Below, piece by piece: positions 25,616 to 57,280 of a stretch of 64,000 bases of DNA. Source of the DNA: Gordius albopunctatus (lineage: Eukaryota); NCBI GenBank assembly GCA_964276515.1, contig OZ193910.1:3534001-3598000 (forward strand), written 5' to 3'. Under the pieces are notes generated by a model. That model made no database searches, was not told where the DNA came from, and saw only the letters and a program-made list of their open reading frames with translations. Within the stretch, counting starts at the first letter, position 1; each line of letters opens with the position of its first letter. The position numbers and the translations under genes are program-made.

Positions 25616-28600
25616 TAGCTGACCCGGCAAACGTTGTTTTGCTATATGTACATTCGTTAGTTATATATTTTATAACATCTTCTAATTTCGAGTCAGGATC
25701 TTATAATTTTAAATAAAAAATGGAATGCTGGCCAGCAATTTCCAAAATATAAATTTAAAATTATTATATTGATAACAACATAATTAAACATAATTAAATA
25801 ATGTGTTAATATACTTACCTAAAACAAATCCCTGATCCGTGTATAACCCGCCATCCCTCCTCTCCACCCCACCGTCCTTTTAATTGATCTAAAATAATAT
25901 ACTATAATCTACACAATATTTCCAATATTTAAAGTTTTAACATAATTAAATCCATCTATATTGTGTTAATATACTTACCTAAACAAATCCCTGATCCGGT
26001 ACGCCATCCCTTCTCCTCAAGCCACTGTCCTATGAATGGATACGATTCTTGTATAAAATAATGTACACAATATTTCAAATATTTAAAGTGTAACTTAATT
26101 AAATCATCTATAATGTACTATACCAAAACGATAAAAACAAATCCTTGATCCGTTTATAACCCGCCATCCCGCCTCCACCCCACCGTCCTTCTAATGAATC
26201 TAAAATTATATGCAATAATCTACACATTTGAAATATTTAAAGTTTTAACATAATTAAATCATCTATATTGTATTAATAGACTTACCTAAAACAAATCCCT
26301 GATCCGTTACGCCATCCCTCCTCTTCACGCCACCGTCCTATTAATGGATACGATTATTGTATAACATAATCGACACAATATTTCAAATATTTAAAGTTAA
26401 ACTTAATTAAATCATCTATAATGTATTGATATACTTAACGAAACGATAAAAAAATCCCTGATCCGTTTTACTTCACAATTAATCTCTACGTGCTATGGAG
26501 TATACAATATTTTTGGTTAGACCGTCTTTAGCCAACACAAACAAACTGGATGGTTTACCCACGCGAGAACATGCCACATATAGTTGTCAGTGGGAAAAGC
26601 ATGGTGGGCTCAAATCTAAGCCACAAATAGACATTGTTTGGCCCTGGGCTTTATTAATTGTCATTGCGAAAGCTAATCTAATCGGAAATTGAATGCGTTT
26701 GAATTGAATGGGTACATCTGAGGGAAAAATAGGAATTCGTGGCAGCAATACATTTTCACCTCGGAACTTTCCATTCAAAATGGTGACTTCGAGAAGATTC
26801 TTCATGCATTTTTTAATGACTAATCTTGTGCTATTGCACAGCCGTGGTAGGTTTAAATTGCTAAGCAAAATTACCGGAGAGCCAACATTCAATTGTAAAA
26901 GGTGAGGAGGCATGCCTGACAAATCCAATGAATTCAAAAACTCAATCGGATAATTTACAACTTCGTTGGCATCACATACTGTATCGACATATTTGTATGA
27001 TATTAAGTCACCTGGCAACAACTGTTGTATCTTGGAATTTAAATCATTGACGTCCACATTTTTTGCTGATTGCTCTTTCTGCCAGCAAATCAAGATTGTT
27101 GTATTCTGTGTAAAGATTTGGAAATACATGGTGAATGAGAGCAGTTTGCGTCTCTACAATTGTGCAAAAATCCGATGGTAATATTTTCAGCGGATGCATC
27201 TTTAGGCATTTGAACGCGCATGTTTACTTTCAGCTGTAGTTTCAAAACATGACACCAAAGTGAGGATGACTTTAAGCAGGCTTTGATCTCATCAGCGTAC
27301 GTTGAATGCGGAATAACGGGAATTGTTTGTCGAAAATCACCTGAAAGCAGTAAAAGAGTACCGCCAAAAAGTCTGTCGTTGTTCTTTAGATCCTTCAATG
27401 TCCTGTTCAATGCCTCAAGCGAACGTTTGTGTGCCATAGTGCATTCATCCCAGATGATAACTTTACATTGTTTGGGCACTCTGGCCATGGACAATTGTTT
27501 TTTTTATGTTGCACATTGCTTCAGGGTTATTTTGAATATTAAGTGGCAGCTTAAATGCTGAATGAGCTGTTCTGCCTCCATCTAATAAAGTAGCTGAAAT
27601 GCCAGATAAAGCAACGGCCAAGGCGATGCCATTTTTTGATCGTATCTCAGCAAGAATTAGCGAAATTAGAAATGTTTTGCCAGTCCCTCCCGGTGCATCC
27701 AAAAAAAAGAAACCCCCTTGTCCTTCAGAAATTGCAAGCAAAATGCGGTCGTAAATGATTTTTTGTTCGTTAGTGAGTAGCGGGACATTGCGAGTAACGA
27801 ATGCTGCCAATTCTATAGTATTGTATTGTCGTTCACGATTCATATCAGTATTGATTAAATCAGATGCATTTCGATTTGGTGACCGCATACCGAAATGGCT
27901 GATGTTTAAATTGGCGATGACAATGCAAAGATCCTCAATAGCTATCAATGCTTCATTGTACATGCAGTCGGTGAATGGTATCGTTAGATCGTTGCTCATA
28001 TGACGATATCGATGCAATATATCATCAGTCATAGAATCTTTGTCATTATCCCACAATGTTTGTGCTCGGGCCGAAAATTAGAAGAATTTGCGCTCCTGTA
28101 CAGTTTAATGATGCTTCCTTCAGTAAGCATACTGTCCCAATGATTGTCGTCTTCTAGCAATCCTAATTCAAGGCATGCATCTCTATAGGTTGGATAATGT
28201 TGTCCATTTACTTTACGGATATCATGAAAAGACAAAGGGCCGGTGAAATTAACCAACAACAGGTGCAGATAAAAGCACTCAGTCTGTCTTGGATTGACTG
28301 TATATACACGACCTAAATTGTTTGATTTAAATAAACCGGGGCATGCATCAACTTGTGTGCCTTGCTTGTGCGGCATCCATTTTCTCGATTGCGCCCACGT
28401 AAAATAGCGCGGTACTTCTGAATAAAGTAGTGTTCGTGCGAAGGCACCAAAAGCATCGGAGGAATTACACAAAGCAAAAAAAGCTGTTAGTGTGGTGTTT
28501 GGTGGATTTATTTAACGATCAAAAGCCGTCTCGTTTGTGAAAAAAACGCGTTGGCCGTTTTCAAGATGAACAGCTAAATGGATAACTGCTGGATGACGTT

Positions 28601-31600
28601 CATGAATTGGAAACCCGAAAATTCGCCAAATAGCTTCATTGGAGCTGATGTATCGTCCAATTTGGTAGTTGGTAATTTCATCACTGTAATTCAATGGCGT
28701 AGCATTCACATTGGTATTTTCAACTCTAAATACAGCCATATCACTTCCTTTATTAATATATTTGCAAATGTATTTTATGCTTTTGACCGAATTGCAGAAC
28801 TCAACATTAATATGAGCATTGAATGTTTTACAGAGGAGAGGTGAGTATGGTACGACCCAACGATTGTCGATGTTAATGTCTGCGTTACTGATAGTTTTGC
28901 TAAATAATTGTCCGCCATCATCGGTACTTCATCGACGATATATAGGATATCCGTCCCCATGTGTGACCCTATCGTTGGTAAAATCTTTAGGAAAACGTTT
29001 TGTACACTTTCCATCTAACATGTAAGACGATGAAGGATTTAAAGCACCGCATGGGCCATGAATCATATTTTCGGTGATAATATCAAACAATAATTGATTA
29101 GTAGAAGGATTTGGTATTTCTGCGGATACTAAACTATCTATGTCTTCTGGGCGTATTTTGTCAATGAACCAAATCAAAATATGTGCATGAGGTAATCCAC
29201 GCTTTTGCCACACAATCGAATACATCCAACAACTTGCGGGGCCAAATATGTGTAATTTTGTTATAAAGTTAACGAAAGACCTTAATTTTTGTTTAAACAC
29301 ACGGGCTATTATGTCATGACGATGTATTGCATTTTGTCGTGGTAAGAGTAACGATGTAATTTCCTGCTATTTTGGGTTACATGTAAAGGTGATAAATAAA
29401 AATGGTCGTCCGTATTCGCGTACGTAAGCCATGGCATCCTGTATGTATTCTTGCATGTGACGCGGACTACCTACGTACGATGATGGTAGAATAATGGAGC
29501 TACCAATTTCGGCAGCGTCAGCGTTGGTAGCGATAGTGTCTCGCAGGTGGATGTATTCTTCAGCACGCAGCATTTTCTGGTTATAACGTAAGAAGCGTAA
29601 GCGCTCGCTCTCAATCTTCACATACATATCCACAATGAACTGCTGGTAAAGCTCTCGACAGCGTAGAATGATGTTGTTTTCACCGTTTCTAATCATCAAA
29701 CGATAGGCATAATAATCCATCGAGCTCACTTTTTTGCTTGTTTCAGCTCCTGTGATATGATACATACAAAAAAAATTAAAAATGAGTAGTCATGTTTTAT
29801 GTTGTATAAAATACCATTTCGGGGATCCCGTTGTTTAATGTTTATAAAATAACCGTCTTGCCCCTTCCAAAAAATGAGCGGAGATTGGAGAGCGTCATAG
29901 GAACGGTGGGTATCAGGAATGAACTGTAGATTATCATCTCTTTTGCGAATCACGATTTGGCGCGAAGCTGTACGGTCGCCAATCATGATTCCAGCAACAT
30001 CGTCAACAGCAGGTGCATTAAATCTACGTAAATGCTGTCCCACAGGTGTTTTATCAGGATAGATGACAATAGCGTGTTTGTCACTTATTAATTTGGGCAT
30101 GTGTGCTTTAAATAATTTTAACAATTCATTGTGCTCAGTCAACAGAACGTCCAGATCGCTGACGATGCGCCTGGCAAAAGGTGAATTAATGTGATTGTAG
30201 CCGCAACGTGCATTTACGCGATTGGCTAGTGCGCGTTCAGAGTCCTCACCACCCATAAAGTAAATTTGTAAAAATTTATAGGAATCGTTTGGCATTAGCA
30301 GCAGTGAGCCAACTTTGTGAAAAACTTGGCCTTTGTTGAATTAAATAGCTGACCGTTTCCAGCATCAGTTTTAACTATTTCTGTTGCTCCGAACGATGTC
30401 ATTTGGAAGCATGAATTAAATGTGCGAATTGACTTTAGGAATAGGCTAGAATCAGGATCCGTGCCAATTAGTAAGCCGTGCAATGGTTCAGGTGGTGCTT
30501 CAATTGCCGTTAGTTGTAATTTTCCTGATGCGCAACACATCCCTGGTGGCTCATTTTTAAATTTAAGTGCATGACAATGTGGACATTCATTGTCTATAGT
30601 ACCAATTACCACTTTGGAATGAGCGTAATATTCAACGTCAGGCTCATAATGGAATGCTAGTCGGAGGAATGAAGCTGATGTAAATGCTCGATGTACTTGT
30701 TGGAGTTGTTGGTTAATAGCTCTACGTGTGTTAAACACGAAGCGGCGCTCTTGTCTTTCGTCTAATCTTCTTTGTAGATTTAGTTTATATATAGTCTCTT
30801 GCGATTGTGATTCACGGAATAAAGCCATACTAACACGCACATCTGCATTATTTTGTAAAAGTTGTTCATCTGTTCTCTGTGCTCGTTTATTGCGCAAGAC
30901 TGCATTATGTTTTGTTCGACGATCTAAATTGGCTCCTTTGCGTTTTGCAGGCATTGATAACTGTAAATAATTAAAATAGTGGCAATTTAATGATAACACC
31001 TACACTTATTATGAAGGTTAGAGACTCCCAATTTTTGCTTATAAATGCTATTTATAATCAAAGTTAATTTTAATAATACATTGTCACTTCAAGAATTTAA
31101 ATCAGGAAGGGGCAAAACATTTGAAATAATTTAGGGAGGGGCAGAAGGCATAAATTATATGATTATAATTTATTCGTATTAATTTTTTATATTTTTTTCT
31201 CATTTAGGGGAAGGGGCGGCCGCCCCTCCCTGTCCCCCTTGGCTACACCCATGAAAAATCGAGAGCTTCAAAAAAATATAAAAATTTTGGTTTGAAAAAC
31301 TTTCTAGTATATGACAGAAGAAGCCAAAGGAATGTTAGGGTTTCTAAATGTTGGGGTATTTCAAATATGATTAGTTTTTTATTTGATGCTGTTTAAAAAT
31401 TAAAAGTGTATTAAAAGATATTTTATAAAAAAAGTTAAATGATTACTTAATAGTACACTTTTCCAGTAAATGACAGAAGAAGCCAAAGGAATGTTAGGGT
31501 TCCTAAATGTTGGGGTATTTCAAATATGATTAGTTTTTAATTTGATACTGTTTAAAAATTTAAAATGTATTAAAAGATATTTTATCAAAAAAGTTAAATG

Positions 31601-34835: not shown

Positions 34836-35112
34836 GGGCTTGTCTTAATATCGGATTCAGATTCGAACCGCGCGATTTTTTTTGTCCATATATCAGATTC
34901 AAGCTCATGGTTCAAACTCGAATGTTATTATTAATTTTACTCAGCCGTTTATTAAAAACAAGTAATAGAAAGAAAAAAAGCATAATTTATCAACTTCGTG
35001 ATATATTTGGGGAATATAATCATATTTTGGATGATAATGCGAGGAGTGAGCAGAACTTTTTCAAAATCATTAAAGATATACAGCATCATAAATCCAAAGT
35101 TATTGCCATACC

Positions 35113-36301
35113 TAGAGATGGGTATTTTCCCGGGAATTTTAATTGAGCGGGAATTAATGGGGAAAATAAACAATTCAATTAAAAAATAAATAAAAAAACA
35201 TGCTAATATACAAAACGAAATTCTCATTAAGTTTATTTGTCCAATAATATACAATATTTTATCACAAATTAACATCACATTAAAAATTGTCAATATCTGA
35301 ACTTTGACTATCGTCATTAAGCGAGGAAATCGATTCATCAGAGGAAGATAATGATAGCGTTTTTGGTCTTTCAAGTGCATATTGTGTCTTATCGAAACCA
35401 GCTTCGTGACCTTGTCATTCTTCATCCTATTTCGTGATTTAGAATGCACATATCCAAACGTAGACCATATTCTTTCAGTGGAAGCATTAGTGGCAGGAAT
35501 CGAAAAATCTTTACAGCAACTTCTGGCAACCACGTCAAGGGTTAAGTGTAGCTTGCACTATCCCATATAAGGCTTTCGGCAAATAACCCGTCTTTTGCGC
35601 GAAATTCTGCCAAATTGACAATAACTTTGGCTACATTTAGATCCGCGTCTTGAGAAATAATTTTAATACCCTGAAAGGCTTGGCCAATTTCTTTACTCGT
35701 CAAATGAAGTCCCCAATACCGTGGATCAAGGAAATTTGCCGCCATATGAAAATTTCCAGATATCAGATGGTTTTCTCGGCATTTTTTATGAAAGAAACTA
35801 ATATAAAAATATTTTTAATAAGTTTTAATCATCAATATTAAATATTTAGATATTTACAAATAAGTAGACAAAATTTTTACCTAAATAAAAGTTTCCAAAA
35901 TGAATACAAGGTCTAAATTAAAAATGGGAAATTTATATTAATAATACTAAACTAAATTCAAATGGTCCAAAAATCTAAATACAACTTTGATTAAATTGCT
36001 TATAAGAATTTACTTGAGTTTACTGTGTGTGTGAAGTGGAATTTAAAAATGACAACTGAAATTTCAAAGTTAGAAATTAGTTTAATTTTAAATGTTTTTA
36101 AGTGTTAAAAAATAGTTTCAAGTAAAATAACAATAGGCGGAAAAATGCAAGATATAGGTTACCACAAGGAAAATATAAAATTATATATGATTAAAATTAG
36201 CTAACAAATTAAAAATTCCTAAATTTTATGTTTTTTAGGGGAATTTATCATTGGGAAAATTCATTTTTCCCGTGGGAATATTCCCCCTAGTGCCATCTCT
36301 A
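35113..36301 (-). mobile_element. Internally deleted hAT element (C-terminal dimerisation domain)
   Basis: Ends TAGAGATGG...CCATCTCTA; AANFLDPRY and FSIPATNASTERIWSTFGYVHSKSRNRM motifs. No matching TSD. Confidence 0.8.
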
Positions 36302-36386: not shown

Positions 36387-37427
36387 TAGAGCCCTGCAAA
36401 GTCACATTTTTTCAACCCGACCCGAAAGTGTTTTTAATTTTTCAACCCGAACCCGACCCGAAAGCGTTTTAAATATTTTAAATTGATTTGCCAAAATAAA
36501 TTGGAGAAAAAATTTGACGCCACGAATTTGAATAATAAATTTATTTGAGAGAATTATTATAATTATGTATAAATATAATAGCGTCTACAATTTCAGGCCG
36601 TAAACTCGACCTCCTATCTTCTAAAATTCGTCCAGCTGTAGAAAAAGATCTCTCACTGGACGCAGAGGAGGCAGCAGGTATGGCCAGAAATTTACGAGCC
36701 AATAACCCTAAAGCAGGATATTTATAAGAATATATTCTCCACCATTCTAATGTGTCGTATGTTTCATCATTTTTTGCAAGTTTATAATGAATATATTCCT
36801 CAAGTTCATCTTTTTCTTGAACATTTTCATCTGCACATTCCTCCCAACCGGAAGAATCCATGAAAGACAAGTTAGCATTATTTTCTAAAATATATTTTAA
36901 CATGAAGTTATATGTTAAATACCTAGCTGATTATTTTCCTTTGATACCTCCCTTTCAACAACTGGCTTTTCCTTTAGACTTTCGCAACTTTTATCATTCA
37001 TTAATGACCTAATCTTAAGCTCTTCAGGCTGCAGCATTTTCATCTGTTTGTATTTCGGCGTTAAAAATTTAACTATCTTGTAGTACATATCTTGATCGAA
37101 TTTTTTATTTAATATTTGCTTGCACCTTTTGGCAAGACCATGTAGTTCTGATTTAATGTCGTAATTTTTGGTGAAATCATTTAATTTGTAAAAATATAAA
37201 AGAAATTTATTTAAAGTTGGGGCCTTATCAGCCTCAAGTTCTGTAATTGCCATATTGAATGGCGTTAAGAACTTTGTCAACTCATCAAGCATATAAATGT
37301 CAATACATTTTATCTTTGAAGAGTCCCCGGTAGAGGTCAAAAGCGTTTCGACCTCTTCATAATTCTTCAACACCGAGTCTAGCATTTTAAAACGGCTATT
37401 CCACCGCGTTTTTAAATAGTTCAATTA
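36387..37427 (-). mobile_element. hAT transposase 3' half plus terminus (left arm of palindrome)
   Basis: TRWNS, LEWW...YP.L..LARKFLAIPAASSASSERSFSTAG; terminus TAGAGCCCTGCA at 36387. Confidence 0.9.
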
Positions 37428-37920
37428 ATGAAAAATATGAATGGGTCAAGAAAAGGGTTTTGTGCCTAAACTGTCTTAGGCAAAACCATAATGCCTATCA
37501 ATGCAGGGCCGGAACTTGTAAGATTTGCCAGAAAAGGCATAATACCTTACTGCATAAATCATTCATTCATTGGCACGCCATTTTTATTCATATATCAGCA
37601 ATCCCTAAACTTCCTCCCTGTTAACACATTCAACAATCGCATCATCACCACACATTTTATAATCAATCACATTCATTCGCATTCCATAACGATACACATT
37701 AAGCAAGTTTTCACATTCGCAATCTCACATGTTATACGTTTTTAATTCATTCACATAATTCAATCTAAAACATTTAAATAAACAAAATCTTCAACATTTT
37801 GGTCCTTCGAGCCGGATATGAACCAGCGACCGAGAAATATAAGCGTAATGTTGAAGCGAAATGTGGAAATAAGTAGAAGTTATTGAACGCGCGAAGTTTA
37901 GAATAATATTAAAACGCGAA
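37428..37920 (+). mobile_element. BEL/Pao LTR retrotransposon pieces: gag zinc-knuckle fragment, LTR 3' end, tRNA-Tyr primer binding site (PBS), LTR 5' start (mirrored at ~39853-40345)
   Basis: EWVKKRVLCLNCLRQNHNAYQCRAGTCKICQKRHNTLLH (37439-37555). AATAAA then CTTCAACA (37789-37796). TGGTCCTTCGAGCCGGAT from 37800. TGTTGAAG at 37849. Confidence 0.82.
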
Positions 37921-38294
37921 AATATTGGAATCAGGCTCTGATTCAGCCATTCCCACAAGCACACTTCTCAGGCTTTCTTTTAGGATGAACTTATTGCCTT
38001 GCAACCTGATGAGGTCAACCTCACTTAGAACATTCACCCTACACACATCATCCACAGCTTGTCCATTGTAAGCCACCAGAGAGAAGTTCAAAAGATTGCC
38101 TAACTTCTCTCTCCTGTTTTTATCTCTAGGGTTTATTGTTCGGCTTCCATGGCAAGACTCATCTCCTCTCCAGACATAACAATAGTGTCAGTCATGTTGT
38201 ATTTAAGTAGAGAGCTTGTAAATAATGAGTATAGCAGTTATGGTAATTGGGTAATGGGTTTATCAAATATAACAATTGTAAGGCAGACTTTGTG
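37920..38294 (-). pseudogene. Endogenous viral element: internally deleted phenuivirus-like nucleocapsid copy with its 5' UTR
   Basis: ATG at 38195 (MTDTIVMSGEEMSLAMEA) is joined out of frame at ~38143 to the C-terminal RTINPRDKN... segment. CACAAAGTC begins 99 nt upstream of the ATG. Confidence 0.78.
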
Positions 38295-38327
38295 AAATAA
38301 AGGGAATAATTTAGTTTAGTCCGCATC

Positions 38328-38746
38328 ATGACTGACACTATTAGTCTTGCCATGGAAGCGTGCCAGGAATACTTCAGGAATCATTTGATCTACCCAACAA
38401 TTACTGAGGAGATCTATGATGCCATGAGATACAAGGGCTTTGATCCACAAATGATCATGTGGTCAATGTTCACTGCCCATAAAAGATCCCCACCTGTGAG
38501 GATCAACACTTTCAATTCTTCAGGATTTTTACACCACTTATGCCTTCTGGCTGGAAGTGCTTGCATGAGGGGGACTAAAGTTAAGAAGATCCTCCAAAAG
38601 TCAGAAGAGTCCTACAAAGAGGACATAAGGAAGTTGGTGGAACTCTACAAAATCAAGGATTCCACCCCCACTGACAATAAATTGAGCCACAGGAAGTGGA
38701 GATGAGGATGAAAATACCACTGACGAGACAACAGCAGGGGCCAGAC
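38328..38746 (+). pseudogene. Phenuivirus-like nucleocapsid N-terminal half (duplicate of 39117-39535, probably an assembly overlap)
   Basis: Appears identical to the copy 789 bp downstream, across the N gap. Confidence 0.6.
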
Positions 38747-38946
38747 NNNNNNNNNNNNNNNNNNNNNNNNNNNNNNNNNNNNNNNNNNNNNNNNNNNNNN
38801 NNNNNNNNNNNNNNNNNNNNNNNNNNNNNNNNNNNNNNNNNNNNNNNNNNNNNNNNNNNNNNNNNNNNNNNNNNNNNNNNNNNNNNNNNNNNNNNNNNNN
38901 NNNNNNNNNNNNNNNNNNNNNNNNNNNNNNNNNNNNNNNNNNNNNN
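38747..38946. other. Assembly gap (200 N)
   Basis: Run of n characters. Confidence 1.
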
Positions 38947-39116
38947 CTCATCTCCTCTCCAGACATAACAATAGTGTCAGTCATGTTGTATTTAAGTAGA
39001 GAGCTTGTAAATAATGAGTATAGCAGTTATGGTAATTGGGTAATGGGTTTATCAAATATAACAATTGTAAGGCAGACTTTGTGAAATAAAGGGAATAATT
39101 TAGTTTAGTCCGCATC

Positions 39117-39864
39117 ATGACTGACACTATTAGTCTTGCCATGGAAGCGTGCCAGGAATACTTCAGGAATCATTTGATCTACCCAACAATTACTGAGGAG
39201 ATCTATGATGCCATGAGATACAAGGGCTTTGATCCACAAATGATCATGTGGTCAATGTTCACTGCCCATAAAAGATCCCCACCTGTGAGGATCAACACTT
39301 TCAATTCTTCAGGATTTTTACACCACTTATGCCTTCTGGCTGGAAGTGCTTGCATGAGGGGGACTAAAGTTAAGAAGATCCTCCAAAAGTCAGAAGAGTC
39401 CTACAAAGAGGACATAAGGAAGTTGGTGGAACTCTACAAAATCAAGGATTCCACCCCCACTGACAATAAATTGAGCCACAGGAAGTGGAGATGAGGATGA
39501 AAATACCACTGACGAGACAACAGCAGGGGCCAGACAGGACCCTGTATTCATCTACGCCAACGCCTCCCTAGATGAGGAGGACAAGAAATTAATAGGCAAG
39601 GCTGCTTTTGCCTATGCTATCAAATTTGACCGAACAATAAACCCTAGAGATAAAAACAGGAGAGAGAAGTTAGGCAATCTTTTGAACTTCTCTCTGGTGG
39701 CTTACAATGGACAAGCTGTGGATGATGTGTGTAGGGTGAATGTTCTAAGTGAGGTTGACCTCATCAGGTTGCAAGGCAATAAGTTCATCCTAAAAGAAAG
39801 CCTGAGAAGTGTGCTTGTGGGAATGGCTGAATCAGAGCCTGATTCCAATATTTTCGCGTTTTAA
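39117..39864 (+). pseudogene. Endogenous viral element: Tenuivirus/Phlebovirus-family nucleocapsid (N) gene, frameshifted at ~39472
   Basis: N half: MRYKGFDP...RGTKVKKILQKS...IRKLVELYKIKDSTP (compare phlebovirus YQGFD...RGNKP..M..KMS...L..KYKLK.G.P). C half from 39475 in another frame: AAFAYAIKFDRTINP...FSLVAYNGQAV...R..VL..VDLI (compare AHSLYLLQFSRVINP...PMNAAVNSNF...RR.FL...GLV). Confidence 0.82.
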
Positions 39865-40345
39865 TATTATTCTAAACTTCGCGCGTTCAATAACTTCTAC
39901 TTATTTCCACATTTCGCTTCAACATTACGCTTATATTTCTCGGTCGCTGGTTCATATCCGGCTCGAAGGACCAAAATGTTGAAGATTTTGTTTATTTAAA
40001 TGTTTTAGATTGAATTATGTGAATGAATTAAAAACGTATAACATGTGAGATTGCGAATGTGAAAACTTGCTTAATGTGTATTGTTATGGAATGCGAATGA
40101 ATGTGATTGATTATAAAATGTGTGGTGATGATGCGATTGTTGAATGTGTTAACAGGGAGGAAGTTTAGGGATTGCTGATATATGAATAAAAATGGCGTGC
40201 CAATGAATGAATGATTTATGCAGTAAGGTATTATGCCTTTTCTGGCAAATCTTACAAGTTCCGGCCCTGCATTGATAGGCATTATGGTTTTGCCTAAGAC
40301 AGTTTAGGCACAAAACCCTTTTCTTGACCCATTCATATTTTTCAT

Positions 40346-41354
40346 TAATTGAACTATTTAAAAACGCGGTGGAATAGCCGTTTTAAAATGCTAGACTCGG
40401 TGTTGAAGAATTATGAAGAGGTCGAAACGCTTTTGACCTCTACCGGGGACTCTTCAAAGATAAAATGTATTGACATTTATATGCTTGATGAGTTGACAAA
40501 GTTCTTAACGCCATTCAATATGGCAATTACAGAACTTGAGGCTGATAAGGCCCCAACTTTAAATAAATTTCTTTTATATTTTTACAAATTAAATGATTTC
40601 ACCAAAAATTACGACATTAAATCAGAACTACATGGTCTTGCCAAAAGGTGCAAGCAAATATTAAATAAAAAATTCGATCAAGATATGTACTACAAGATAG
40701 TTAAATTTTTAACGCCGAAATACAAACAGATGAAAATGCTGCAGCCTGAAGAGCTTAAGATTAGGTCATTAATGAATGATAAAAGTTGCGAAAGTCTAAA
40801 GGAAAAGCCAGTTGTTGAAAGGGAGGTATCAAAGGAAAATAATCAGCTAGGTATTTAACATATAACTTCATGTTAAAATATATTTTAGAAAATAATGCTA
40901 ACTTGTCTTTCATGGATTCTTCCGGTTGGGAGGAATGTGCAGATGAAAATGTTCAAGAAAAAGATGAACTTGAGGAATATATTCATTATAAACTTGCAAA
41001 AAATGATGAAACATACGACACATTAGAATGGTGGAGAATATATTCTTATAAATATCCTGCTTTAGGGTTATTGGCTCGTAAATTTCTGGCCATACCTGCT
41101 GCCTCCTCTGCGTCCAGTGAGAGATCTTTTTCTACAGCTGGACGAATTTTAGAAGATAGGAGGTCGAGTTTACGGCCTGAAATTGTAGACGCTATTATAT
41201 TTATACATAATTATAATAATTCTCAAATAAATTTATTATTCAAATTCGTGGCGTCAAATTTTTTCTCCAATTTATTTTGGCAAATCAATTTAAAATATTT
41301 AAAACGCTTTCGGGTCGGGTTTGGGGTTAAAAAATGTGACTTTGCAGGGCTCTA
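40346..41354 (+). mobile_element. hAT transposase 3' half plus terminus (right arm of palindrome)
   Basis: Reverse complement of the left arm; ends TGCAGGGCTCTA at 41354. Confidence 0.9.
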
Positions 41355-43606
41355 GTATTAATATCAAAAAAGACCTCTATGCCTTGTGTTTATTTAAACA
41401 GTAACATCCAATATTTGCGAAGTTTTAGTAGGGACACATAATAAAGAGTGTCTATAGTTGTATTATTAGTTGTAATCATTTCAAACTGGGTTATTTTTTT
41501 CATTTAACCACCTATATTTAATGTAAAAATTAATTTAAAAATTTTATAATCTTACCATTTATCCGATTCTCACTTATACAATTTCGACTGTAATTACATT
41601 GTGAGGGGTATATTATTTTTATAGCAAAACACAATTTTCATGATAAATTCTTTACATTGTTGTTTTGCCATTACATCAAGAGATTGTAAATCTGGCAAAA
41701 GAGATTTAAAAATAATAAATTTGGATCCTCTTCTTTTGAGGATTTAGCCCCTTCTATATCAATCAGTCTATTGAGTTGATCAACAAACAGGATTCTTCTT
41801 TTACAAGGTCTATTTTCTTTATCTATATCATGTAAGGTGCTTGTGGTGGGAGTTTCATCAAAAACCTTTTCCACAAACATGATGTCATTCATTTTAAAAG
41901 TTTATCATACCTTCACACCATATAATTTTATTCTTTTCAACGCTTTTGATCAAATATAAACTTTGCTGATACCTAAAAACTCAAAATTCATATAAAATTT
42001 ACGCTTACGAAAAATCTTGCATCCTACAAAATCGCTGTTATGTTGTTATGCGTCTAAAATCGAAATCTGCTCTAAATCGGATATTAAGACACTGCTATGT
42101 TAAACCACGTATGACGATTGTTGCTGCGCATCAAAATCCGATATTAAGACAAGCCCTAAGATTTATCCTATTTGAATAGTTCTTTCTACAATACATATAA
42201 ATGCTAATTTTAACTTATTTGGATATTAAATTTGATATACAACAACCAACTTTCTCATTTTTTTACCTTCTCTAGTACATATAACCCTTATTAATTTGGC
42301 AGATTCTCTTTATATTTTGAACCCAATTCTAATTTTAATTTATATCCAATTCATTTACATTCACAATATTTATGCATGCTAATAATGTCAAAGTTATGTA
42401 ATCCAACCAGTATTAGCTTTTAAACAATATCTGAGCTTCTTTATTGCTTATGATTCATTTCTCTGTAAGAATTTGAATTTCAAATTTGATAGAAGTCTAG
42501 GGCCTAGATAGACGTCGTCAATACAAATATATCGAGATATAGACTGACCCCTTCCCAACGCATTTCTAAAAACAATTAAATCATTCTTAATAATATTCCT
42601 TCTCAATGGGTGGTCCTGACTTTATATTTATCCCTCCTCCCACCCACCCCCATTCCCACGCCAAAAACAACTGCGAGCTCAAGACGAAAATGCTACTAAT
42701 ATTTTATAATTTTATTTATTTTAAATTTAAACTAATTTTATTTAGAGCCACTTACTAGGGACGTTCATGCTTTTACTTTTACCCCCTCCCCTTCGAGAGT
42801 GTATTCTCGAGGTGCAAGACAAGAAATAACTACTCTATATTAAACAAATTTATTATTCTCCTGCTTATCGCTCCCGGAAAAAATCTGGCGTCAATACCCA
42901 ACTGTAAAATTAAAAATAAGTCGGAAGAAGTCTGGCGCCCTCTTATAAATAATATATTTCCCCACCCATCTACAAATAAGATGTTATTTATTTATAACGA
43001 ACAAATACTTGCTAAAATGCTGTAATATATGAAGCTGTAAATTCCGAGATATCATTTTTTGACGAGGAAGTAGAGGGCTGATTGGAGGATGATATCTTGT
43101 CGCGATTTTTTGAAGCGAGGGACAAAACTGTTTAATAGAATTCAATGTTAATAGTCACCAAGAAATTTAATTGTATCACCAACTCACTCAAATATACATA
43201 TATAACGAATTATTATAAACAAGAAAATATCTTCACCTCCCGCTCCCCTCTGCGTCTATTCCCTATCATGAAGCTACTCTATTTTTGAACAAATATATTT
43301 TCTACTGCTCAAATGCTTGCGGAATAGATCTCGCTTAATTACTAATTTACACTAAAAATAAGTGTGAAGCAGACTGACCCCCCCCCCCCCATTATAAGGA
43401 AAGGTAAGCTCTACCCCTCTACAAAAATGGTCTTATTTATAACCAGTAATTCATCTACCTATTCACTTCTAATATATTGACAATATACAAAACACAACTA
43501 CGCTTGCTTCGAATAATTTTCATATCTGCCAATTAAGTTTTAAAATTTGTTTACTAAATCCGTTTCATTCCACGCCAACTTTTAAACCCCTTATACTCAA
43601 ATTAAA

Positions 43607-45250
43607 ATGATTTTAAAACTGGCTTCACTCAATACTCAAACCTTAAGAGAACCAGGAACCTTGCAGATCCTTACTTTATTTGCCTCCCACCACAGAATTC
43701 ACATTTTCTGCGTTCAGCAAACTAGATACTCACATCGCAAAGTTCTCCCCATTAACGACTATAATTGCTATTGCACAGAATGCGGCCTTGAGACTGCATC
43801 AGGGGTAGCCATTTTTATAAAAAAGGAACTCAAAGTGATTAGCATCGACTATGTTAACAACAGATTATTAATCATTCACTTAAAAATAAAAAATCGTTGT
43901 TCATCAATTTTAAACATATACGCTCCACACTCTTCCAAAAATTCTCAATCGATGGAATCCCTCCTCCAAAACATCACAGATAAACTTAAAACTAAACATC
44001 TTAATATCCTCGTCGGTGACTTTAATGCTTCCGTCCAGCTTTCATTGGGTGATAATAATTTAATAATTGGCCCGACTAACCGAAACGGTAAACTGCCTAA
44101 AAAATTCTGCTACAAACACAAACTAAAGATAACCTCAACCTTTTCCGACCTTCCTCTTGATAACCTAATCACATACCAAAAAAATGAAAATCACCAAGGT
44201 ACCCAAATTGATCATATAATATGCCAACTAAGAAACCACAAAATGATAAAGAACTTCCACACCTTTCAGCCTCTCTTAAAAACAGATAATTTTGTCATCT
44301 CAGCCGATCTCTTTATTAATCCCTCCTCTCTCCACTCGTCTAAAAAACTGAAAAAATACCCATATCGAGCAAACATAATCAGGCATCTCTCAACTTGAGT
44401 CCAGATTACAAACAGACTCGAAGGCTCTTGGCGATCTTGCCCCCCTCTCAGTCAATGACCACAATTACACTTTAGCAAAGTTTTTCACCCCATCCCAGAG
44501 TAACCATCTCCATATCAACATTAAGTCCTGGTTCTCCATCGATACCATTAATTTAACCGAGTCCCGATATAACGTTTTTAAGGATAAGACATTTAAAAAT
44601 AAAAAGCATGGGTCCAACATCTCACAAAAAAGATCAAAGCGGCAATAAAAAAGGACAAGGCTAATTACTTATCAAGCAAATTAAAAGAAGTAGAATCTGC
44701 TGCTCGCACAAACAGTACACACACGACACACCATTTAAAAAATTCTCAGAAACATCGCCGCAAAATTTGCAGATAAATATAATCACAACACAATACAAAA
44801 CGAACATAGCTCCAGCGATTCTTTGATCCAAATGGAGGCTTGGGAGAACTACTTTCGTTCCATTCTAGATCGCCTTTATTCAATCACCTGTTCCGACATA
44901 TTCCTTGAATTCATTAATAACTTCAAAACACCCACCACCCCTTCTATCAGAGTAGAACCACCCCCCTTGAATGAAATAAAATACGTGTTAAAATCCCTCA
45001 AACTTCACAAAGCATCCGATGCAGACAAAATCACAGCAGAAGCCTTTAAAGCTGAATACACCCTGTTTAGCGAACTCTTGCATCAATTCTTCACAAAAAT
45101 CTGGCAACAAGAGATCATCCCCCACGCTTGGTCTACTTAGTAAAATCTATAAAAAAGAAGACCCATCCCTTCCCGATAATTATAGAGGGATCACAATTAT
45201 AAATAACATTTCCAAGGTTTTTATAAAAATAATATACAGGAGGATATATC
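43607..45250 (+). mobile_element. Decayed non-LTR retrotransposon (AP endonuclease and start of RT)
   Basis: ASLNTQTL, CVQQTR, SGVAIF, NIYAP, VGDFNA and QIDHI (APE); IYKKEDP...NYRGITIINNISKVF (RT N-terminus). Many stops and frameshifts. Confidence 0.85.
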
Positions 45251-46774
45251 CATTCAGTGGTTCCCCCGCATAATCCCGAAAACGCAGAATCGCGAATTTC
45301 GAAACTAGGTTTTTCCGCCAATTTCAACATATGGAAAATTTGGAAAACTCTTTAACTATTGCAAATCAAGATAACAAAGAGGCACCACAGTAGCTAAATT
45401 TGTATTAAAAAACTTTTAAGTTTCTTACTTTGGAGATTTTGTTTATGTATACAATTTTGGGAATGTTCTGATGTTATCATAAAATTATTATATCTAAGGA
45501 CAGCTCTTCCTGGGCATTTACATATACTGTAGTGCCTGCACTTATAGTATACTTGTCCCATCTTACCTGCTCTGATCTTGATATAGTCAAACTTTTTGAA
45601 AGTGACTATATAATTTTTTCTATTAGATTTTTTAAAACCTATAACAATATGTGTATGCTTGCATAATAAAGCTTACTTATATTCTCTTTGTTATCTTGAT
45701 TTGCAATAGTTAAAGAGTTTTCCAAATTTTCCATATGTTGAAATTGGCGGAAAAACCTAGTTTCGAAATTAGCGATTCTGCGTTTTCGGGATTATGCGGG
45801 GGAACCACTGAATGGATATATCCTCCTGTATATTATCTTTATAAAAACCTTGGAAATGTTATTTATAATTGTGATCCCTCTATAATTATCGGGAAGGGAT
45901 GGGTCTTCTTTTTTATAGATTTTACTAAGTAGACCAAGCGTGGGGGATGATCTCTTGTTGCCAGATTTTTGTGAAGAATTGATGCAAGAGTTCGCTAAAC
46001 AGGGTGTATTCAGCTTTAAAGGCTTCTGCTGTGATTTTGTCTGCATCGGATGCTTTGTGAAGTTTGAGGGATTTTAACACGTATTTTATTTCATTCAAGG
46101 GGGGTGGTTCTACTCTGATAGAAGGGGTGGTGGGTGTTTTGAAGTTATTAATGAATTCAAGGAATATGTCGGAACAGGTGATTGAATAAAGGCGATCTAG
46201 AATGGAACGAAAGTGGTTCTCCCAAGCCTCCATTTGGATCAAAGAATCGCTGGAGCTATGTTCGTTTTGTATTGTGTTGTAATTATATATATCTGCAAAT
46301 TTTGCGGCGATGTTTCTGAGAATTTTTTAAATGGTGTGTCGTGTGTGTACTGTTTGTGCGAGGAGCAGATTCTACTTCTTTTAATTTGCTTGATAAGTAA
46401 TTATCCTTGTCCTTTTTTATTGCCGCTTTGATCTTTTTTGTGAGATGTTGGACCCATTCTTTTTATTTTTAAGTTTCTTATCCTTAAAAACGTTATATCG
46501 GGACTCCGTTAAATTAATGGTATCGATGGAGAACCAGGACTTAATGTTGATATGGAGATGGTTACTCTGGGATGGGGTGAAAAACTTTGCTAAAGTGTAA
46601 TTGTGGTCATTGACTGAGAGGGGGGCAAGATCGCCAAGAGCCTTCGAGTCTGTTTGTAATCTGGACTCAAGTTGAGAGATGTCTGATTATGTTTGCTCGA
46701 GATGGGTATTTTTTCAGTTTTTTAGACGAGTGGAGAGAGGAGGGATTAATAAAGAGATCGGCTCAGATGACAAA
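44291..46774. repeat. Inverted duplication: ~1.09-kb arms (44291-45381, 45684-46774) with a ~300-bp spacer
   Basis: Mirror ORFs (44823-45140 and 45925-46242, among others) differ by few substitutions. The spacer encodes a FLYWCH-like peptide on the minus strand. Confidence 0.92.
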
Positions 46775-48949: not shown

Positions 48950-51130
48950 AATAACACCCCCTTAGCATATATCTAAGGGTCCATCGGGTCTCTACGGAAA
49001 AATAATAGACTAGCGAATGGTCGGTATTCAACACACCCACACTCAATGTCTTCACTAGACAAGGAGACTAACAGTGTGAGTGTGGCTCTTTTTCTTAAGA
49101 CTATAATACCCTCTCAGCACACCTAAGGGCGCGCTACTAGTCTCTAATGACTTAACTTTTTAAATTTTGCTACCCCCATGGTCAACAACCTTAGATAACT
49201 CACACCTAGGCTGACCTAAATAATTTTTCGACCAAACAAGATCATTAACATTATATTTGTACCTGTTAAATGTTTAAATTTGCTATCCAGCAAAAAAATC
49301 AGGCGGAAAACGTAAATTATGACCAAAAAATTCAACACCAACTGGCAAACGTCTAAATCTAGGCGTCATGTTATGGTATAATCGACATAACCATGTACCC
49401 TCTTTATTAGGCTGTGCCAGTTTTATACCAATTGCTACATACCTCTCAACTTGTCCATTAGAACTAGGATCATACGGCGGCGTTAAAAAATGAATTATTT
49501 TCCAATTATTACAAAAATCTCTAAAATCGACATTTGTAAACGCTTTTCCTTTATCGGTTACTATAAATTTCGGAAAACCGTAAGAGCCAATTAATTCTTT
49601 TAAAAAAATTACAGTTTATTTTAAATTCAGTCCAACCTGAAAATGCATCTACCACTAATATATATATCTCTTTTTATTAAATTCAAAAAAAATCAACACG
49701 AATTCTACTCCAGGGATGATCTGCACGAGGGCATCGCGCCTTCTTATCCCTACGTGGCATGGCTGCCTTTAATTTACACATAGCACACTGCCGAACATAG
49801 ATTTCAACGTCCCTTGTAATCTTGGGCCACCAGACATATAGCCTCGCGAGCTCCTTCATTTTTACTATACCTGCATGCCCTTCATGCAAAATACTTAAAA
49901 TCTTACTACGCAGCTCAAAAGGAATTACCAGCTTATCATTGCGTTTAACTAAATTATCTTCAATATATAGTTCCTTAATCACATGTTTAAAATCTACAGG
50001 AACATTTTGAATTTGTTTAATATTTGCTAATTCAGAATTATTTTCTGTACTTTTGCCAATATCGTCAAGATCAGGGACTATCATTATTTGTAACAGATAT
50101 CTCTTTAGTTATATTATTCGCACTCATTCGTGATAAAACATCAGCCAAATGATTACTTTTACCTTCTCTATATATTAAAGTTAATGAAAAATTACCAAGA
50201 GTTAATAATCATTTCTGAAGTCGAGGCGAAATTAAAAATTCCATATTAATTTTCTCAAATAAAGCTACCAATGGCTTATGATCGGTATACAATGTAAATG
50301 ATTTACCAATTAAATATTCTCGACATCGTTTAAAACAAACCATCGCCAGAGCTTCTTTCGCTATGACTGAATGAATTAAGTTCAGCCTTAGTAAGCTCGC
50401 GAGAAAAATAAATGACAGGATGCTCTATTTCATCTTCTATCTGACATAAAGCACCACCAATACCCGTATTGGATGCATCAACTTTTTAAATATGCTCTTT
50501 ATCAGGATCAAAACATTTGTAGAGTTGCATCCATTACCTTACTACTTCGCGACGTTAATTGACTTATTCAATTAATCCGCGATTATAGAAAGTAGTTTAA
50601 AACACTTACCAATTTGCGAACTCTTTTCGTTTCCCTTTTTTATTAGTATTAAATAAAGTAAATTCTTAATTTAAGTTGTATACATTGCTCCACAGGGAAC
50701 ATAGAACTTAAGCGTACATTACACATCGTCAGTTATCCTCTACAAAGAGGACCAGAATAATTTGTATAATTTTCAATAAATTTACTGTAATAATTCATTA
50801 ATCCTAAAAACAATGCAAGTTCTTTTTTATCTACTGGTCTATTTATATTTTTTATCTTTTTCAAATTAGGTTTAACAAAACCGTCTCCTATTGTCCTATT
50901 ACATGAACCAAATAAATTACCTGGTCAGTACCAAAATTACATTTCTTAGCAGAAACTCGCAAATTTTTAATTTTAATTAATCGTAATACCTTCTGTATAC
51001 CTAAATCATGTTCGTCCTGATTTGAACCCGTAACTAATATATCGTCCAAATAAAAAAATACACCATCTATAGATGTTCGAGGCTTAATATTCTTCGATAT
51101 GTGAATCATCAATTTATTTCTATTCAATAA
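48950..51130 (-). mobile_element. Decayed Ty3/Gypsy pol (RT, RNase H, integrase)
   Basis: YLDDILV (50888-51151), DASNTGIGGAL (~50440-50480), LHEGHAGIVKMKELARLYVWWP...C..C (49683-50084), in RT-RH-IN order. Possible polypurine tract and LTR start near 48956. Confidence 0.85.
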
Positions 51131-51927
51131 TACGATAACAATATAATTCACATAAAATTCTTCAGGTATATAATGATATCCAATATTTTTATATCTTTTT
51201 TATATATGTTTGTTTCCAAATTAATAGTCATCATGATTTTTTACAATAAGCGCATCTCTTTTTGGTACAAGAGTATTTGTATCTTTCTGGATCGTGCTTT
51301 AGTCATTGATAGTTAGAGACCTGCACGGGCGGCCCGAGGCCCGATGTAAGGTTGTGTTTGTACGCTAAGATGGAAATGCCCTTATACATGTCAATCACAT
51401 TCAATTGACAGATAAACTTTGCAATTTCGACATGCGTCACATGACATCCATATAATTCAGTTTCATATAGAAAATTTTAGGCTATATAGTTAAATTAAAT
51501 TTTAATAATTATAACTGCAAATGTATACTTAATTTTGATGTTTTCTATTTAATTGTACTTAATATTTCTCTGTTCATCCATATAATTCAGTTTCATATAG
51601 AAAAAATAATAATTTAGGCTATATTACATTAAATTTTACTAATTATAACTACAAATGTATACTTAATTTTTATGTTTTCTACTTGATTTTACTTAATCTT
51701 TAAATTTGTATGTTTTCTGTTTCAATTCACTTAAAAAATATCTGTTTTATCTTTAAATTTCTGTTTTATGTTTGGATATACTTAATATATATCTGTTTTA
51801 TGTTTAATTTTATAGATCCTATCATTTGGTGGAAATAAATTTATTATTTTTAATCATATAAGTTTATTATAAAACAAATTTTCATTTTTTAAGATGAAAA
51901 AGGCAAATTTTCTTTTGTAGGCTCTTT

Positions 51928-55059: not shown

Positions 55060-57280
55060 ACCTTCAATTTAAATATATTGTGAATTATATATTTTTTATA
55101 GAACTAGCCTCTCTACCTTCCATGACAATTGATAACAATATCTCAAATAATATTATATCTTTTTCAAGTAAAAATATATAAAATATATTTAATTTTTAAT
55201 AAAGGGCCAATAAACATACTGACTGAATCAACACTTGATAACGTTACTCCTACATCAAGTAAAGTTTATTATTTAAAGGATTTAATATATAAATATAAGG
55301 TTCTCTTGAAGATGCTCAAATATTATTGGATGCTTTCCAAATAATCCAGACAAATAACCAAAGTAATATTCTTTTAATGTAAATTATATCACAGTTTTTA
55401 GTCAATGCTCCCAAGTTTTTTGGGGAATATGAAAAAATAATCACTAACATTGCATTAAAAAATGCGGTTCTGGATGACCCTAAAGAAAGGATAAGCAAGA
55501 TATATTACAAAGTCATAGCGGAGAGGCTGAGGGACAATCCTGACCTCAGGGACCATCCCGAAGCCACCCCACTGTTAATGTTGCCCCCAACATTTTACTC
55601 AAGTATTTACATTTTTATAATATATCCGTAACGTTGTTTTTAGATTTATACAATTCATTCTTATTACCGGGAGCACATGGTTCCGGTAGTATATACATTT
55701 CTGCCTGATAAAACCGAAGATACTTATAAGAAAGTGTCAGCTAGTTTTCGCCCCAAACTATGCACAGGTTGATTTTGAACGGGCAAGCATCGGGGCCTTG
55801 GAAGCCTGTTTCCCTAATATTATTATAAAGGGTAAAATTTAATGTTTTGTTTATATAATTTTTAGGTTACTTGTTTCATTTTGGCCAGGCGATCTGTCGA
55901 CACGCTGGGTCTGGCAAAATGAACACTCTTTATTCATCAAACGCTGATTTTAAGCGCAGCGTTCGTCGTCTTTTAGCATTACCATTTGTGAAGAGAGGGC
56001 ACATCAGCGATGTCATGACCCATTGCATGGTCCAGCCCAATGTGCGCGGCGATAGAGAAATTGAGAATTTTTTTTGTACATCCACAATACCTGGGTTGGG
56101 CTTGAGAGAGACCCCTTGTTACCCTATGATATGTGGCAACGGCTTGATGCAGAGGGGCCCTGTACCAACAACCACTTGGAAGGGTTTCATAATGCTCTTA
56201 GAATTGGGCTTAAACAAACCCACCCTACTATTTATGTGTTTGTTGATTTCCTGCAAGAAAAAACTAATGTTGATTTACTACACATCTCTCAGGGCAAGAG
56301 TGTGTATGAAACAAATAAAAAATACGCTTCTATAAATTATAATATAAATCGTCTTATAGCTCAATATACAAATGTATCTAACCCTATGCCCCTATTTCCA
56401 TATGTTGATGCCATCTCTAATTATATGCACCTACAAATTATTAAACGTTTCAATTTCACGCTCTAAAAAATCTTTTGCCCATATGACCCATGTCAAAATG
56501 ATAATTTGAATTACTTTTACTGATATTACAAGCTCAAACATATAAATAGTTTGGAACGGCTTAAATATATTGGCTAGATGCTAATAATTTATGATGTAAA
56601 TACTCTTTATTTTTAAATGTAACGATAGTATGTGTAACTGTATTAAGCTTATTTTACTTATACTATATTGTAAATTAAACACATTAGTGATAATATTTAT
56701 TCATTATATATATATAATTAACTATTATTATACATATGTTAGTTATATAAAATAAATGTTATATCAGGTATAAAATGCACTAGTGATAATATTTATTCAT
56801 TTTATATATATCATTAACTATTATTATGTTATTTAAACCCCATAGATATTACAACAGATAGAATATTTATTCATTTTATATATATCATTATTATTATCTG
56901 TTATTTAAATCCCATAGATATTACAACAGATAGAATATGCTCAAGTGGTAATATCTATTCATTTTATATATATCATTAACTATTGTTATATGTTAGTTAA
57001 ATAAGATACATGTTACAACAGATATAAAATGTATCATGTTTTATAGCATTACTTTAGCTTTACATATGATATATACACACATTACACCAATTGATAATAA
57101 TACATGTTCTATAATTATTAACTATTATCACTATTAACAATTAAATCTAATATATTTAATACTATATAATTAAAATATATTATAATATCCATATGTTTAT
57201 ATATACACATTAAATATTTCATATGATCCGAATTTCTGATTCATGCATACAAAAATTTTACTGGATGTACCCAAATCGGC
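55060..57280 (+). mobile_element. Second, deleted copy of the 4470-8830 MULE family
   Basis: ORFs 55129-55344, 55871-56335 and 56074-56466 are near-identical to the minus-strand ORFs of the first copy. Shared 3' AT-rich repeats. Confidence 0.88.

Follow-up and report, generated by a model that had tools for sequence, protein, structure and literature searches.

The analysed window, a stretch of 64,000 nucleotides from Gordius albopunctatus, is rich in broken LINE, hAT, MULE, Helitron and LTR pieces, and one host gene was found in it (Table 1). In this setting lies an inverted duplication whose arms form the longest of the 161 inverted pairs in the window and are reverse complements of each other in 1,723 of 1,725 paired columns, in keeping with the near-perfect arms described in an earlier note on this DNA. 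From the outside toward the loop, each arm carries the 3' end of a hAT transposon, a BEL/Pao-like gag knuckle, an inward-facing LTR end, a stretch resembling a primer-binding site (PBS) and about 230 nt of what is likely a divergent phenuivirus-like nucleocapsid (N) gene. The outer limit of each arm coincides exactly with the hAT terminus, and no target-site duplication flanks the unit. Five differences separate them, including the substitution and the 2-nt indel that had been noticed before: two substitutions (36449/41322 and 37691/40082) and three places at which the left arm is longer, by 1, 29 and 2 nt (36413, 36417-36445 and 36547-36548). Four of the five fall within the outer 165 nt, and three of these four may represent a single event in an unstable repeat.

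Table 1. Features of the palindrome and its surroundings (positions in the window).
Feature	Position	Strand	Basis or remark
DPAGT1, intronless	11772-13007	+	host gene
Left arm of inverted duplication	36387-38143		self-comparison of window
hAT 3' part: terminus 36387, subterminal repeats, frameshifted transposase C-terminal part	36387-37409	-	Pfam, translation
BEL/Pao-like gag piece, CCHC knuckle then C-C-H-H motif	37409-37556	+	mirror 40217-40364
LTR 3' part facing loop: TATAA 37658, AATAAA 37777, CA end	37557-37796	+	mirror 39977-40216
PBS-like 18-mer, TGG start, 3 nt past LTR end	37800-37817	+	mirror 39956-39973
Leader of the retrotransposon, running into antisense viral sequence (approximate border)	37818-37911	+	sequence
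Nucleocapsid-like 3' part, left arm	37912-38143	-	mirror 39630-39861 on +
Reversed nucleocapsid-like start, ATG 38195, plus ~100 nt likely viral 5' UTR	38144-38295	-	without ~480 nt of gene middle
Left contig end, same 589 nt as 38947-39535	38158-38746		unmerged overlap, single-copy in genome
31-nt spacer at true symmetry centre	38296-38326		sequence comparison
200-N scaffold gap	38747-38946		sequence
Forward nucleocapsid-like copy, two frames, break near 39475-39490	39117-39864	+	ATG = 38328 in left contig
Right arm of inverted duplication	39630-41354		self-comparison; inner part 1.5-1.9x loop depth in X1, X2
Mirror hAT 3' part, terminus at 41354	40364-41354	+	Pfam, translation
Second inverted duplication, broken LINE piece	44291-46774		arms 1,091 nt, 14 substitutions, 302-nt spacer, no gap

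Scaffold gap, loop and length of the unit

The two arms sit on opposite sides of the scaffold gap, no single assembled contig covers both, and the gap is flanked by a direct repeat with an identity of 589/589. Such a layout could arise as an artefact of assembly or amplification, either by mirroring of one arm across the gap or by a scaffolder joining two loci. Of nine runs, X1, X2, X3 (organism B) and X8 (organism C) were compared with the locus; X1 and X2, in which 0.69 and 0.63 of the words sampled were present, come from the same study and may share a source with the assembly, perhaps including the assembled sample itself. Each of these two runs gives one unbranched loop contig of 757 nt, which starts with 44 letters predicted from the left junction and ends 30 nt into an arm at either end. 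Since 757 nt equals 697 + 2 x 30 nt, the 589-nt repeat is an unmerged overlap, the loop is 697 nt long, and the whole unit spans 4,179 nt once the 200 N and the overlap are removed, instead of the roughly 5 kb given previously. A tandem duplication within the loop was rejected on the same contig. Contig depth is 13.5 for the flank, 15.1 for the loop and 28.5 for the inner arm in X2, and 256.9, 337.8 and 491.5, respectively, in X1, which places the inner arm at 1.89 (X2) and 1.46 (X1) times the loop. Together with the five arm differences, the differing flanks and a head-to-head arrangement of N starts already present within the left contig alone, these data render an artefact very unlikely, and the earlier view that the palindrome is not a pure assembly mirror is upheld. 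The inverted duplication is real DNA and young. The short reversed second copy of the N start in the loop places the symmetry centre at the 31-nt spacer; the forward copy misses 21 nt near the start that the reversed copy keeps.

X3 and X8 contain related transposon families and do not cover 38947-39846, although contigs of this kind cannot prove absence. For 38947-42400, the listing of runs that share its sequence named no RNA run, a result that does not bear on expression. The outer junction at 41354 was bridged by none of the pieces listed (32 of 13,550). Just beyond it, X1 and X2 contigs join 41355 to 42507 on opposite strands, suggesting an adjacent inversion; an inverted 8-mer was sought at this joint and not found.

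Mobile-element and viral pieces

The hAT piece matches Pfam Dimer_Tnp_hAT (PF05699) with an E-value of 5.2e-21 and 74.7 bits against a cut-off of 21.4, and behind its C-terminal dimerisation domain come subterminal repeats and then a short terminus, the arrangement of a hAT fragment. At 40364, where the inner hAT junction is mirrored, a hAT contig of high depth is attached. The 8 nt outside the two hAT termini agree at 4/8 positions, in place of a perfect 8-bp target-site duplication; insertion of a foldback element as a unit was rejected for want of such a duplication. The 2-nt variant that distinguishes the arms occurs on about half of the depth of other family contigs (X1, X2 and X3), as expected if two family members gave the tips.

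These observations bear on how the palindrome arose. One route is transposase-driven alternative transposition, as in the composite insertions of maize Ac, whose geometry in the available text of that study (bioRxiv 10.1101/2020.01.07.897926) is matched by arms that end at a hAT terminus and have unequal inner ends. This route concerns the origin only and would fit either functional outcome, but the tip variants are common to other copies of the family, and we regard it as conceivable yet unlikely. The differing flanking 8-mers (4/8), the position of the differences near the tips and the sharing of the 2-nt variant by family contigs argue instead for recombination or template switching.

Adjacent to the hAT part, the gag piece contains the motif CX2CX4HX4C followed by CX2CX3HX4H. 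The hAT and BEL/Pao-like pieces named earlier are present, the former with the Dimer_Tnp_hAT match (E 5e-21). The published BEL/Pao motif, in the available part of its source, has HH where the present piece has HN (PMC4580426). Pfam gives a weak zf-CCHC match (E 0.44-0.51), and a database search yielded no homologue of the gag piece. LTR-related contigs are present at high depth in the runs. The 5' TG of the LTR was sought and not found, and the 5' end of the LTR is likely truncated. The PBS-like 18-mer, at whose mirror the match of a related contig breaks off exactly (39956), fits a PBS in its position and its TGG start and may match tRNA-Tyr; Rfam returned no tRNA match at this site, no tRNA gene lies in the 64-kb window, and our literature search found no relevant paper on tRNA-Tyr primers in BEL/Pao. 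LTR end, PBS-like site and leader lead directly into antisense N. The BEL/Pao-like fragment in the unit contains no pol in which the PR-RT-RH-IN order of the family could be read. The inner-arm contig of X1 stops at 39891, with a branch placed near 39861. Contigs without any difference cover the virus-leader junction of the right arm (39630-39891 in X1, 39630-39985 in X2), as expected of viral sequence integrated in host DNA.

For the viral piece, the earlier estimate of about 220 bp of nucleocapsid sequence in the stem holds (220-230 nt). Both N halves match the Tenui_N profile (PF05733) in collinear order, at 19-95 for P0002 (E 1.9e-4) and at 148-211 for P0001, the N 3' part (E 0.1), and these are their sole Pfam matches at E up to 10, but with 21.5 and 12.6 bits both remain below the curated cut-off of 25. 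The PDB contributes weak phlebovirus N matches (E 0.034-0.87) and none for the second half. In addition, positions 38286-38295, which precede the reversed ATG by 100 nt, match a tenuivirus segment terminus (motif taken from PMC8148189) at 9/10 letters; since 3.4 such matches are expected by chance in the window, the information lies in the position alone, whose chance is about 0.0035 (post hoc). Relatives of N were sought in viral contigs (65 pattern matches, none confirmed), in a longer-protein search (none among 57 candidates), for the first half in 1.84 billion representatives (none at E up to 0.001) and in the Atlas, which returned unrelated matches or nothing. The single-sequence predicted fold of P0002 has a pLDDT of 42. 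Judged from these sequence comparisons, the insert is likely a piece of a divergent phenuivirus-like nucleocapsid gene.

Host small-RNA setting and known inverted-repeat loci

The earlier note had placed the locus in an arthropod frame, which does not fit the sole host gene found: among the matches listed for this one gene, DPAGT1 is 76% identical to a Gordionus-labelled hairworm protein and at most 59% to others, so that a horsehair worm is the likely host. In Paragordius, neither Piwi nor piRNAs were found (PMC4323106), and four hairworm genomes were described as 'largely devoid' of PIWI, with the marine Nectonema, which keeps PIWI, as the stated exception (PMC13650160); freshwater hairworms are also reported to be without RdRP (PMC4323106, PMC13650160). 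For Gordionus, the accessible portion of PMC12505628 lists a single Dicer, 2,349 aa in length. Given the reported absence of PIWI and RdRP in freshwater hairworms, a piRNA route is unlikely, and Dicer acting on dsRNA is the route left. A counterpart of the dedicated Dicer-2 of flies is not known in hairworms.

A piRNA-cluster-like region, comparable to those that hold endogenous viral elements in mosquitoes, would share with the partly available Aedes account (PMC6797480) a transposon-dense surrounding and a viral insert linked to an LTR element, and Nectonema shows that PIWI can persist in the phylum (PMC13650160). Yet the reported lack of PIWI and piRNAs in freshwater species (PMC4323106, PMC13650160) and the grouping of DPAGT1 with the Gordionus-labelled protein make this reading highly improbable, and with it the 1U piRNA alternative raised earlier.

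The following comparisons draw on the parts of the cited papers that were available. With the maize Ac killer composites (bioRxiv 10.1101/2020.01.07.897926) and Mu killer (PMC3440606), the locus shares an inverted duplication of a partial DNA transposon with kilobase arms and, with the Ac composites, termini of the same type that face outward and unequal broken inner ends that are fused. In contrast to Ac, it has 3' rather than 5' hAT ends and hence no hAT promoter, and it differs from both maize systems by the missing 8-bp target-site duplication, the LTR and RNA-virus cargo and the animal host. The locus looks like these killers, whereas a killer-type action here, with transcription into dsRNA, 21-24-nt siRNA and silencing in trans, is hypothetical. 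The inverted-repeat endogenous pararetroviruses of tomato (PMC9868043) likewise are viral inserts with a proposed heritable siRNA memory; there, however, the host is a plant, the virus a reverse-transcribing DNA virus and siRNA was shown, whereas the present piece stems from a negative-strand RNA virus in an animal and is known from DNA. Non-retroviral endogenous viral elements of Aedes (PMC6797480) combine viral RNA sequence with an LTR element in a transposon-dense region, but act via PIWI and piRNA clusters, which are reported absent in freshwater hairworms, while the insert here is within a palindrome. Hairpin-RNA loci of Drosophila (PMC10317233, PMC10292708) are young inverted repeats in an animal and a possible source of endo-siRNAs against selfish elements, although their targets are meiotic-drive genes and not viruses. 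Within the phylum, palindromes of mitochondrial coding genes (PMC6649704) are also near-perfect and break contigs; these are up to 284 bp long, whereas the present locus is nuclear, with 1.7-kb arms and pieces of mobile elements.

A predicted source of double-stranded RNA

As the best explanation, which we hold tentatively at a little under an even chance, an accidental inverted duplication in transposon-rich DNA is predicted, if transcribed, to give dsRNA from which Dicer would make siRNAs directed at a phenuivirus-like virus and at a BEL/Pao-like element. To begin with, a BEL/Pao reverse transcriptase may have switched template onto viral RNA to produce the order LTR end, PBS, leader and antisense N; the accessible text of PMC6797480 documents LTR-virus hybrids that reverse transcription had produced in mosquito cells. 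This chimera lies against the hAT 3' fragment, a structure that is present in the DNA and would have been assembled as the second step. Then, the block could have been copied in reverse, most likely by template switching or by recombination between two hAT copies in opposite orientation, and the 31-nt spacer would be the joint of two inner ends that had broken at different points. In the resulting unit, the LTR ends face each other; RNA begun in either one would form a hairpin with a stem of about 450 bp, and the two LTR transcripts together would represent both strands of the viral loop. The structure supports the palindrome as a possible Dicer substrate, as had been proposed. The accompanying claim of siRNA against the virus and two transposon families was overstated: RNA started in the LTR would pair over the LTR end, PBS, leader and N 3' part, but the hAT part would pair only under read-through from outside.

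It is, with slightly less weight, quite conceivable that the locus is inert, i.e. a neutral palindrome left by rearrangement in a graveyard of transposons, untranscribed or undiced, that would probably decay or be lost by deletion. The window is crowded with broken transposons around one host gene, and a second palindrome, about 3 kb from the first and derived from a LINE, carries no viral sequence. Since the LTR looks 5'-truncated, its promoter may be dead, and poly(A)-type AATAAA hexamers in and near the loop (+ strand at 38296, 38676/39465 and 39636; - strand at 38132) could stop transcripts short of a long stem. The many perfect inverted repeats of hairworm mitochondria are, in the available text, considered by their authors to be perhaps non-functional (PMC6649704). 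Against inertness, the inward LTR ends retain TATAA, an AATAAA-CA end and the PBS, and the similarly built maize Ac inverted repeats gave rise to dsRNA and siRNA in each of the two cases examined, as far as the accessible text goes (bioRxiv 10.1101/2020.01.07.897926). If silent, the palindrome would be an ordinary rearranged insert, its length inflated by an assembly gap.

The locus is also a likely trace of a divergent phenuivirus-like lineage, and among the literature matches listed, there was no viral insert of a hairworm and no animal RNA-virus insert in a hairpin locus. The near-perfect stem contains viral and leader sequence specific to this locus, and LTR hairpins, convergent transcription and read-through are each predicted to leave a small-RNA footprint of their own. 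A broader proposal, which we consider rather improbable, is that freshwater hairworms, having lost PIWI and RdRP, store an inherited protection from transposons and RNA viruses in groups of inverted-repeat 'killer' loci, which Dicer would read; the window would hold two of these within 10 kb, one of them recording an undescribed phenuivirus-like lineage. The palindrome bears on how animals that lack piRNAs as well as RdRP, as reported for freshwater hairworms, restrain transposons and viruses.

The palindrome and its loop

Global alignment confirmed the arm positions given in the earlier note (36387-38143 and 39630-41354). The left arm and the reverse complement of the right arm agree in 1,723 of 1,725 paired columns and differ by two substitutions and three gaps (1, 29 and 2 nt), with the extra nucleotides always in the left arm. 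With only two substitutions per 1,725 columns, the duplication is, judged by sequence, young or recently converted. No other of the window's 161 inverted pairs is as long as this palindrome (36387-41354). Eight pairs measure 80 nt or more and have their arms less than 6 kb from each other; only two of the eight, the present one and a second palindrome at 44291-46774, are longer than 300 nt and more than 95% identical.

The loop includes 200 N at 38747-38946, and the 589 nt preceding this gap are identical to the 589 nt after it. The right half of the locus was compared with four of nine listed public runs, all of them as assembled contigs. In X1 and X2, two samples of organism A from one study, a single 757-nt contig covers 38947-39659 without differences and carries 44 additional letters at its start. 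A single-copy loop of 697 nt plus 30 nt of arm per end yields exactly 757 and 44. Hence, the 589-nt repeat is an unmerged assembly overlap, and the true unit measures 4,179 nt rather than the ~5 kb previously assumed. Contig depth, a rough measure, amounts to 13.5, 15.1 and 28.5 (X2) and 256.9, 337.8 and 491.5 (X1) for flank (42134-42436), loop and inner arm, i.e. near 1:1:2 over three contigs with 0 differences. Both runs, in which a share of 0.69 (X1) and 0.63 (X2) of the sampled words is present, may include the assembled sample itself. No contig bridging 41354 was found among the 32 matches listed of 13,550 pieces, and the left-hand junctions are inferred. Overall, the palindrome is very probably a genuine DNA structure, while an artefact is highly improbable.

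The second palindrome lies 3 kb away, with 1,091-nt arms (98.7% identical; 14 substitutions, nine of them transversions) and a 302-nt spacer. Its sequence is a broken LINE piece, situated between the endonuclease and the reverse transcriptase (weak match on the latter side, E 0.002). This palindrome contains no gap and shows no transposon terminus at its ends, the right one of which adjoins a piece of another LINE family. Two palindromes in 64 kb may represent a hairpin cluster or a palindrome-prone lineage, with the window alone compared. Abundant perfect inverted repeats are reported for hairworm mitochondria in the available part of PMC6649704, and hairworm genomes are described as transposon-rich (bioRxiv 10.1101/2024.06.11.598342, in excerpt).

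Viral and transposon sequence in the arms

Components of the left arm and loop, and other features of the window
Feature	Position	Description
hAT 3' part	36387-37409	terminus, subterminal repeats, frameshifted transposase tail (PF05699, E 5e-21)
gag piece	37409-37556	CX2CX4HX4C, then CX2CX3HX4H
LTR 3' part	37557-37796	ends CA; TATAA at 37658, AATAAA at 37777
PBS-like site	37800-37817	putative tRNA-Tyr match
leader	~95 nt after PBS-like site	runs into antisense nucleocapsid-like sequence
spacer between nucleocapsid-like copies	38296-38326	31 nt
satellite-like arrays	20600-22100; 58100-60300	units ~108/129 nt, both orientations; 351-aa open frame made of repeats in the 58-kb array
two further hAT-like termini	14460; 51314	
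hAT dimerisation fragment	34955-35557	different family
broken MULE, Helitron, LTR integrase/RT pieces	19038-20024; 26587-30999; 49283-51199	
LINE copies	935-3792; 22639-25196	opposite orientation, ~69% alike
inverted matches	4474-8858; 55067-57277	83-94%, separated by ~50 kb; probably one element present as two dispersed copies
DPAGT1	11772-13007	intact, amid transposon debris

A high-depth hAT contig joins the palindrome at 40364, the mirror of the inner hAT edge; contigs in X1 and X2 also link 41355 with 42507 in opposite strand orientation, immediately at the hAT terminus. The gag motif is near the Pao-type motif in the available part of PMC4580426, with one His fewer here. A contig of organism C, from a run presumed to be RNA, matches the entire 148-nt gag piece (40217-40364) without a difference, pointing to a close relative or a shared element. 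The LTR and PBS features used follow the ICTV Belpaoviridae profile (PMC8742986). Both LTR ends point to the palindrome centre, and the LTR is likely truncated, as no TG start was seen. The match of a related public-run contig ends exactly at the mirror end of the PBS-like site.

The nucleocapsid-like sequence occurs in two head-to-head copies. The reversed copy comprises ~100 nt of likely 5' UTR, the gene start and the 3' part, with the middle ~480 nt missing, and the forward copy starts at ATG, lacks 21 nt near its start and is split into two frames near 39475-39490. Both halves match Tenui_N (PF05733) as their sole Pfam family, collinearly (profile 19-95, E 1.9e-4, and 148-211, E 0.1) and below the 25-bit cut-off. 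Phlebovirus nucleocapsids make up three of the seven weak PDB matches of the first half; the second half has none in PDB. Searches of viral contigs and protein collections returned no relatives, nor did 1.84 billion representative sequences for the first half at E up to 0.001, and the predicted fold was of too low quality for use. The likely 5' UTR ends in a 9/10 match to the tenuivirus segment terminus (motif from part of PMC8148189). Since 3.4 such matches are expected by chance in the window, only its position is informative (post hoc chance ~0.0035). The label 'phenuivirus-like' likely fits, although the Pfam scores are sub-threshold.

Origin of the palindrome

As LTR end, PBS and leader are fused to viral sequence, a retrotransposon reverse transcriptase may have switched template to viral RNA; LTR-virus hybrids are reported from mosquito cells (PMC6797480, in part). 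Both arms stop at a hAT terminus and their inner ends are of unequal length, the geometry described for maize Ac composite insertions (bioRxiv 10.1101/2020.01.07.897926, available part), which would suit a transposase-driven insertion. However, four of the five arm differences fall within the outermost 165 nt, and other hAT family contigs carry the 2-nt variant too, at about half their depth in three runs. The outer flanks lack an 8-bp target-site duplication (4 of 8 nt match), which sets the palindrome apart from an Ac-type composite insertion. Transposase-driven insertion therefore appears rather unlikely, and copying or recombination involving a pair of hAT copies in opposite orientation is preferred, at roughly even probability. 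One event in an unstable repeat may account for three of the outer differences, and this would weaken the recombination case.

Host and predicted RNA output

The scan of 42 frames yielded a single host gene, an intronless DPAGT1. Its best match, labelled '[Gordion' and read as Gordionus, is 76% identical, and the other 119 of 120 listed matches 52-59%. In a nematode-free tree of the window protein and 22 hand-picked matches of these 120, the window protein groups with this best match at 100/100. Hence, the host is likely a horsehair worm, as placed by one gene. For Paragordius, the available part of PMC4323106 reports miRNAs but no Piwi, piRNAs or 5'-triphosphate small RNAs; that of PMC13650160 describes four hairworm genomes largely without PIWI and RdRP, with PIWI present in Nectonema. 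One Gordionus Dicer is listed in the accessible part of PMC12505628. Given the reported losses, the earlier note's arthropod piRNA frame was dropped, a piRNA-type role being very unlikely, and Dicer acting on double-stranded RNA remains.

If either LTR end still promotes, its RNA would fold over ~450 bp (LTR end, PBS, leader and ~230 nt of nucleocapsid-like sequence), and transcripts from the two LTR ends would between them span both strands of the loop. Pairing of the hAT and gag parts would require read-through from outside. We tentatively favor an accidental siRNA source. The likely truncated LTR and AATAAA hexamers in the loop as well as just inside each arm argue against an LTR-started hairpin RNA, and an inert rearrangement is almost as probable as the siRNA source.

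The palindrome resembles the Ac/Mu killer loci in build, but its silencing activity is only predicted. Viral inserts forming inverted repeats that give siRNA are already known from tomato (PMC9868043, in part). In the literature covered, mostly outside subscription journals, neither a viral insert from a hairworm nor an RNA-virus insert within a hairpin locus of any animal was found. A selected immune role, putatively, would be a subset of the accidental siRNA source; that hairpin loci would serve as heritable defence of an animal lacking PIWI and RdRP is conceivable, though improbable.
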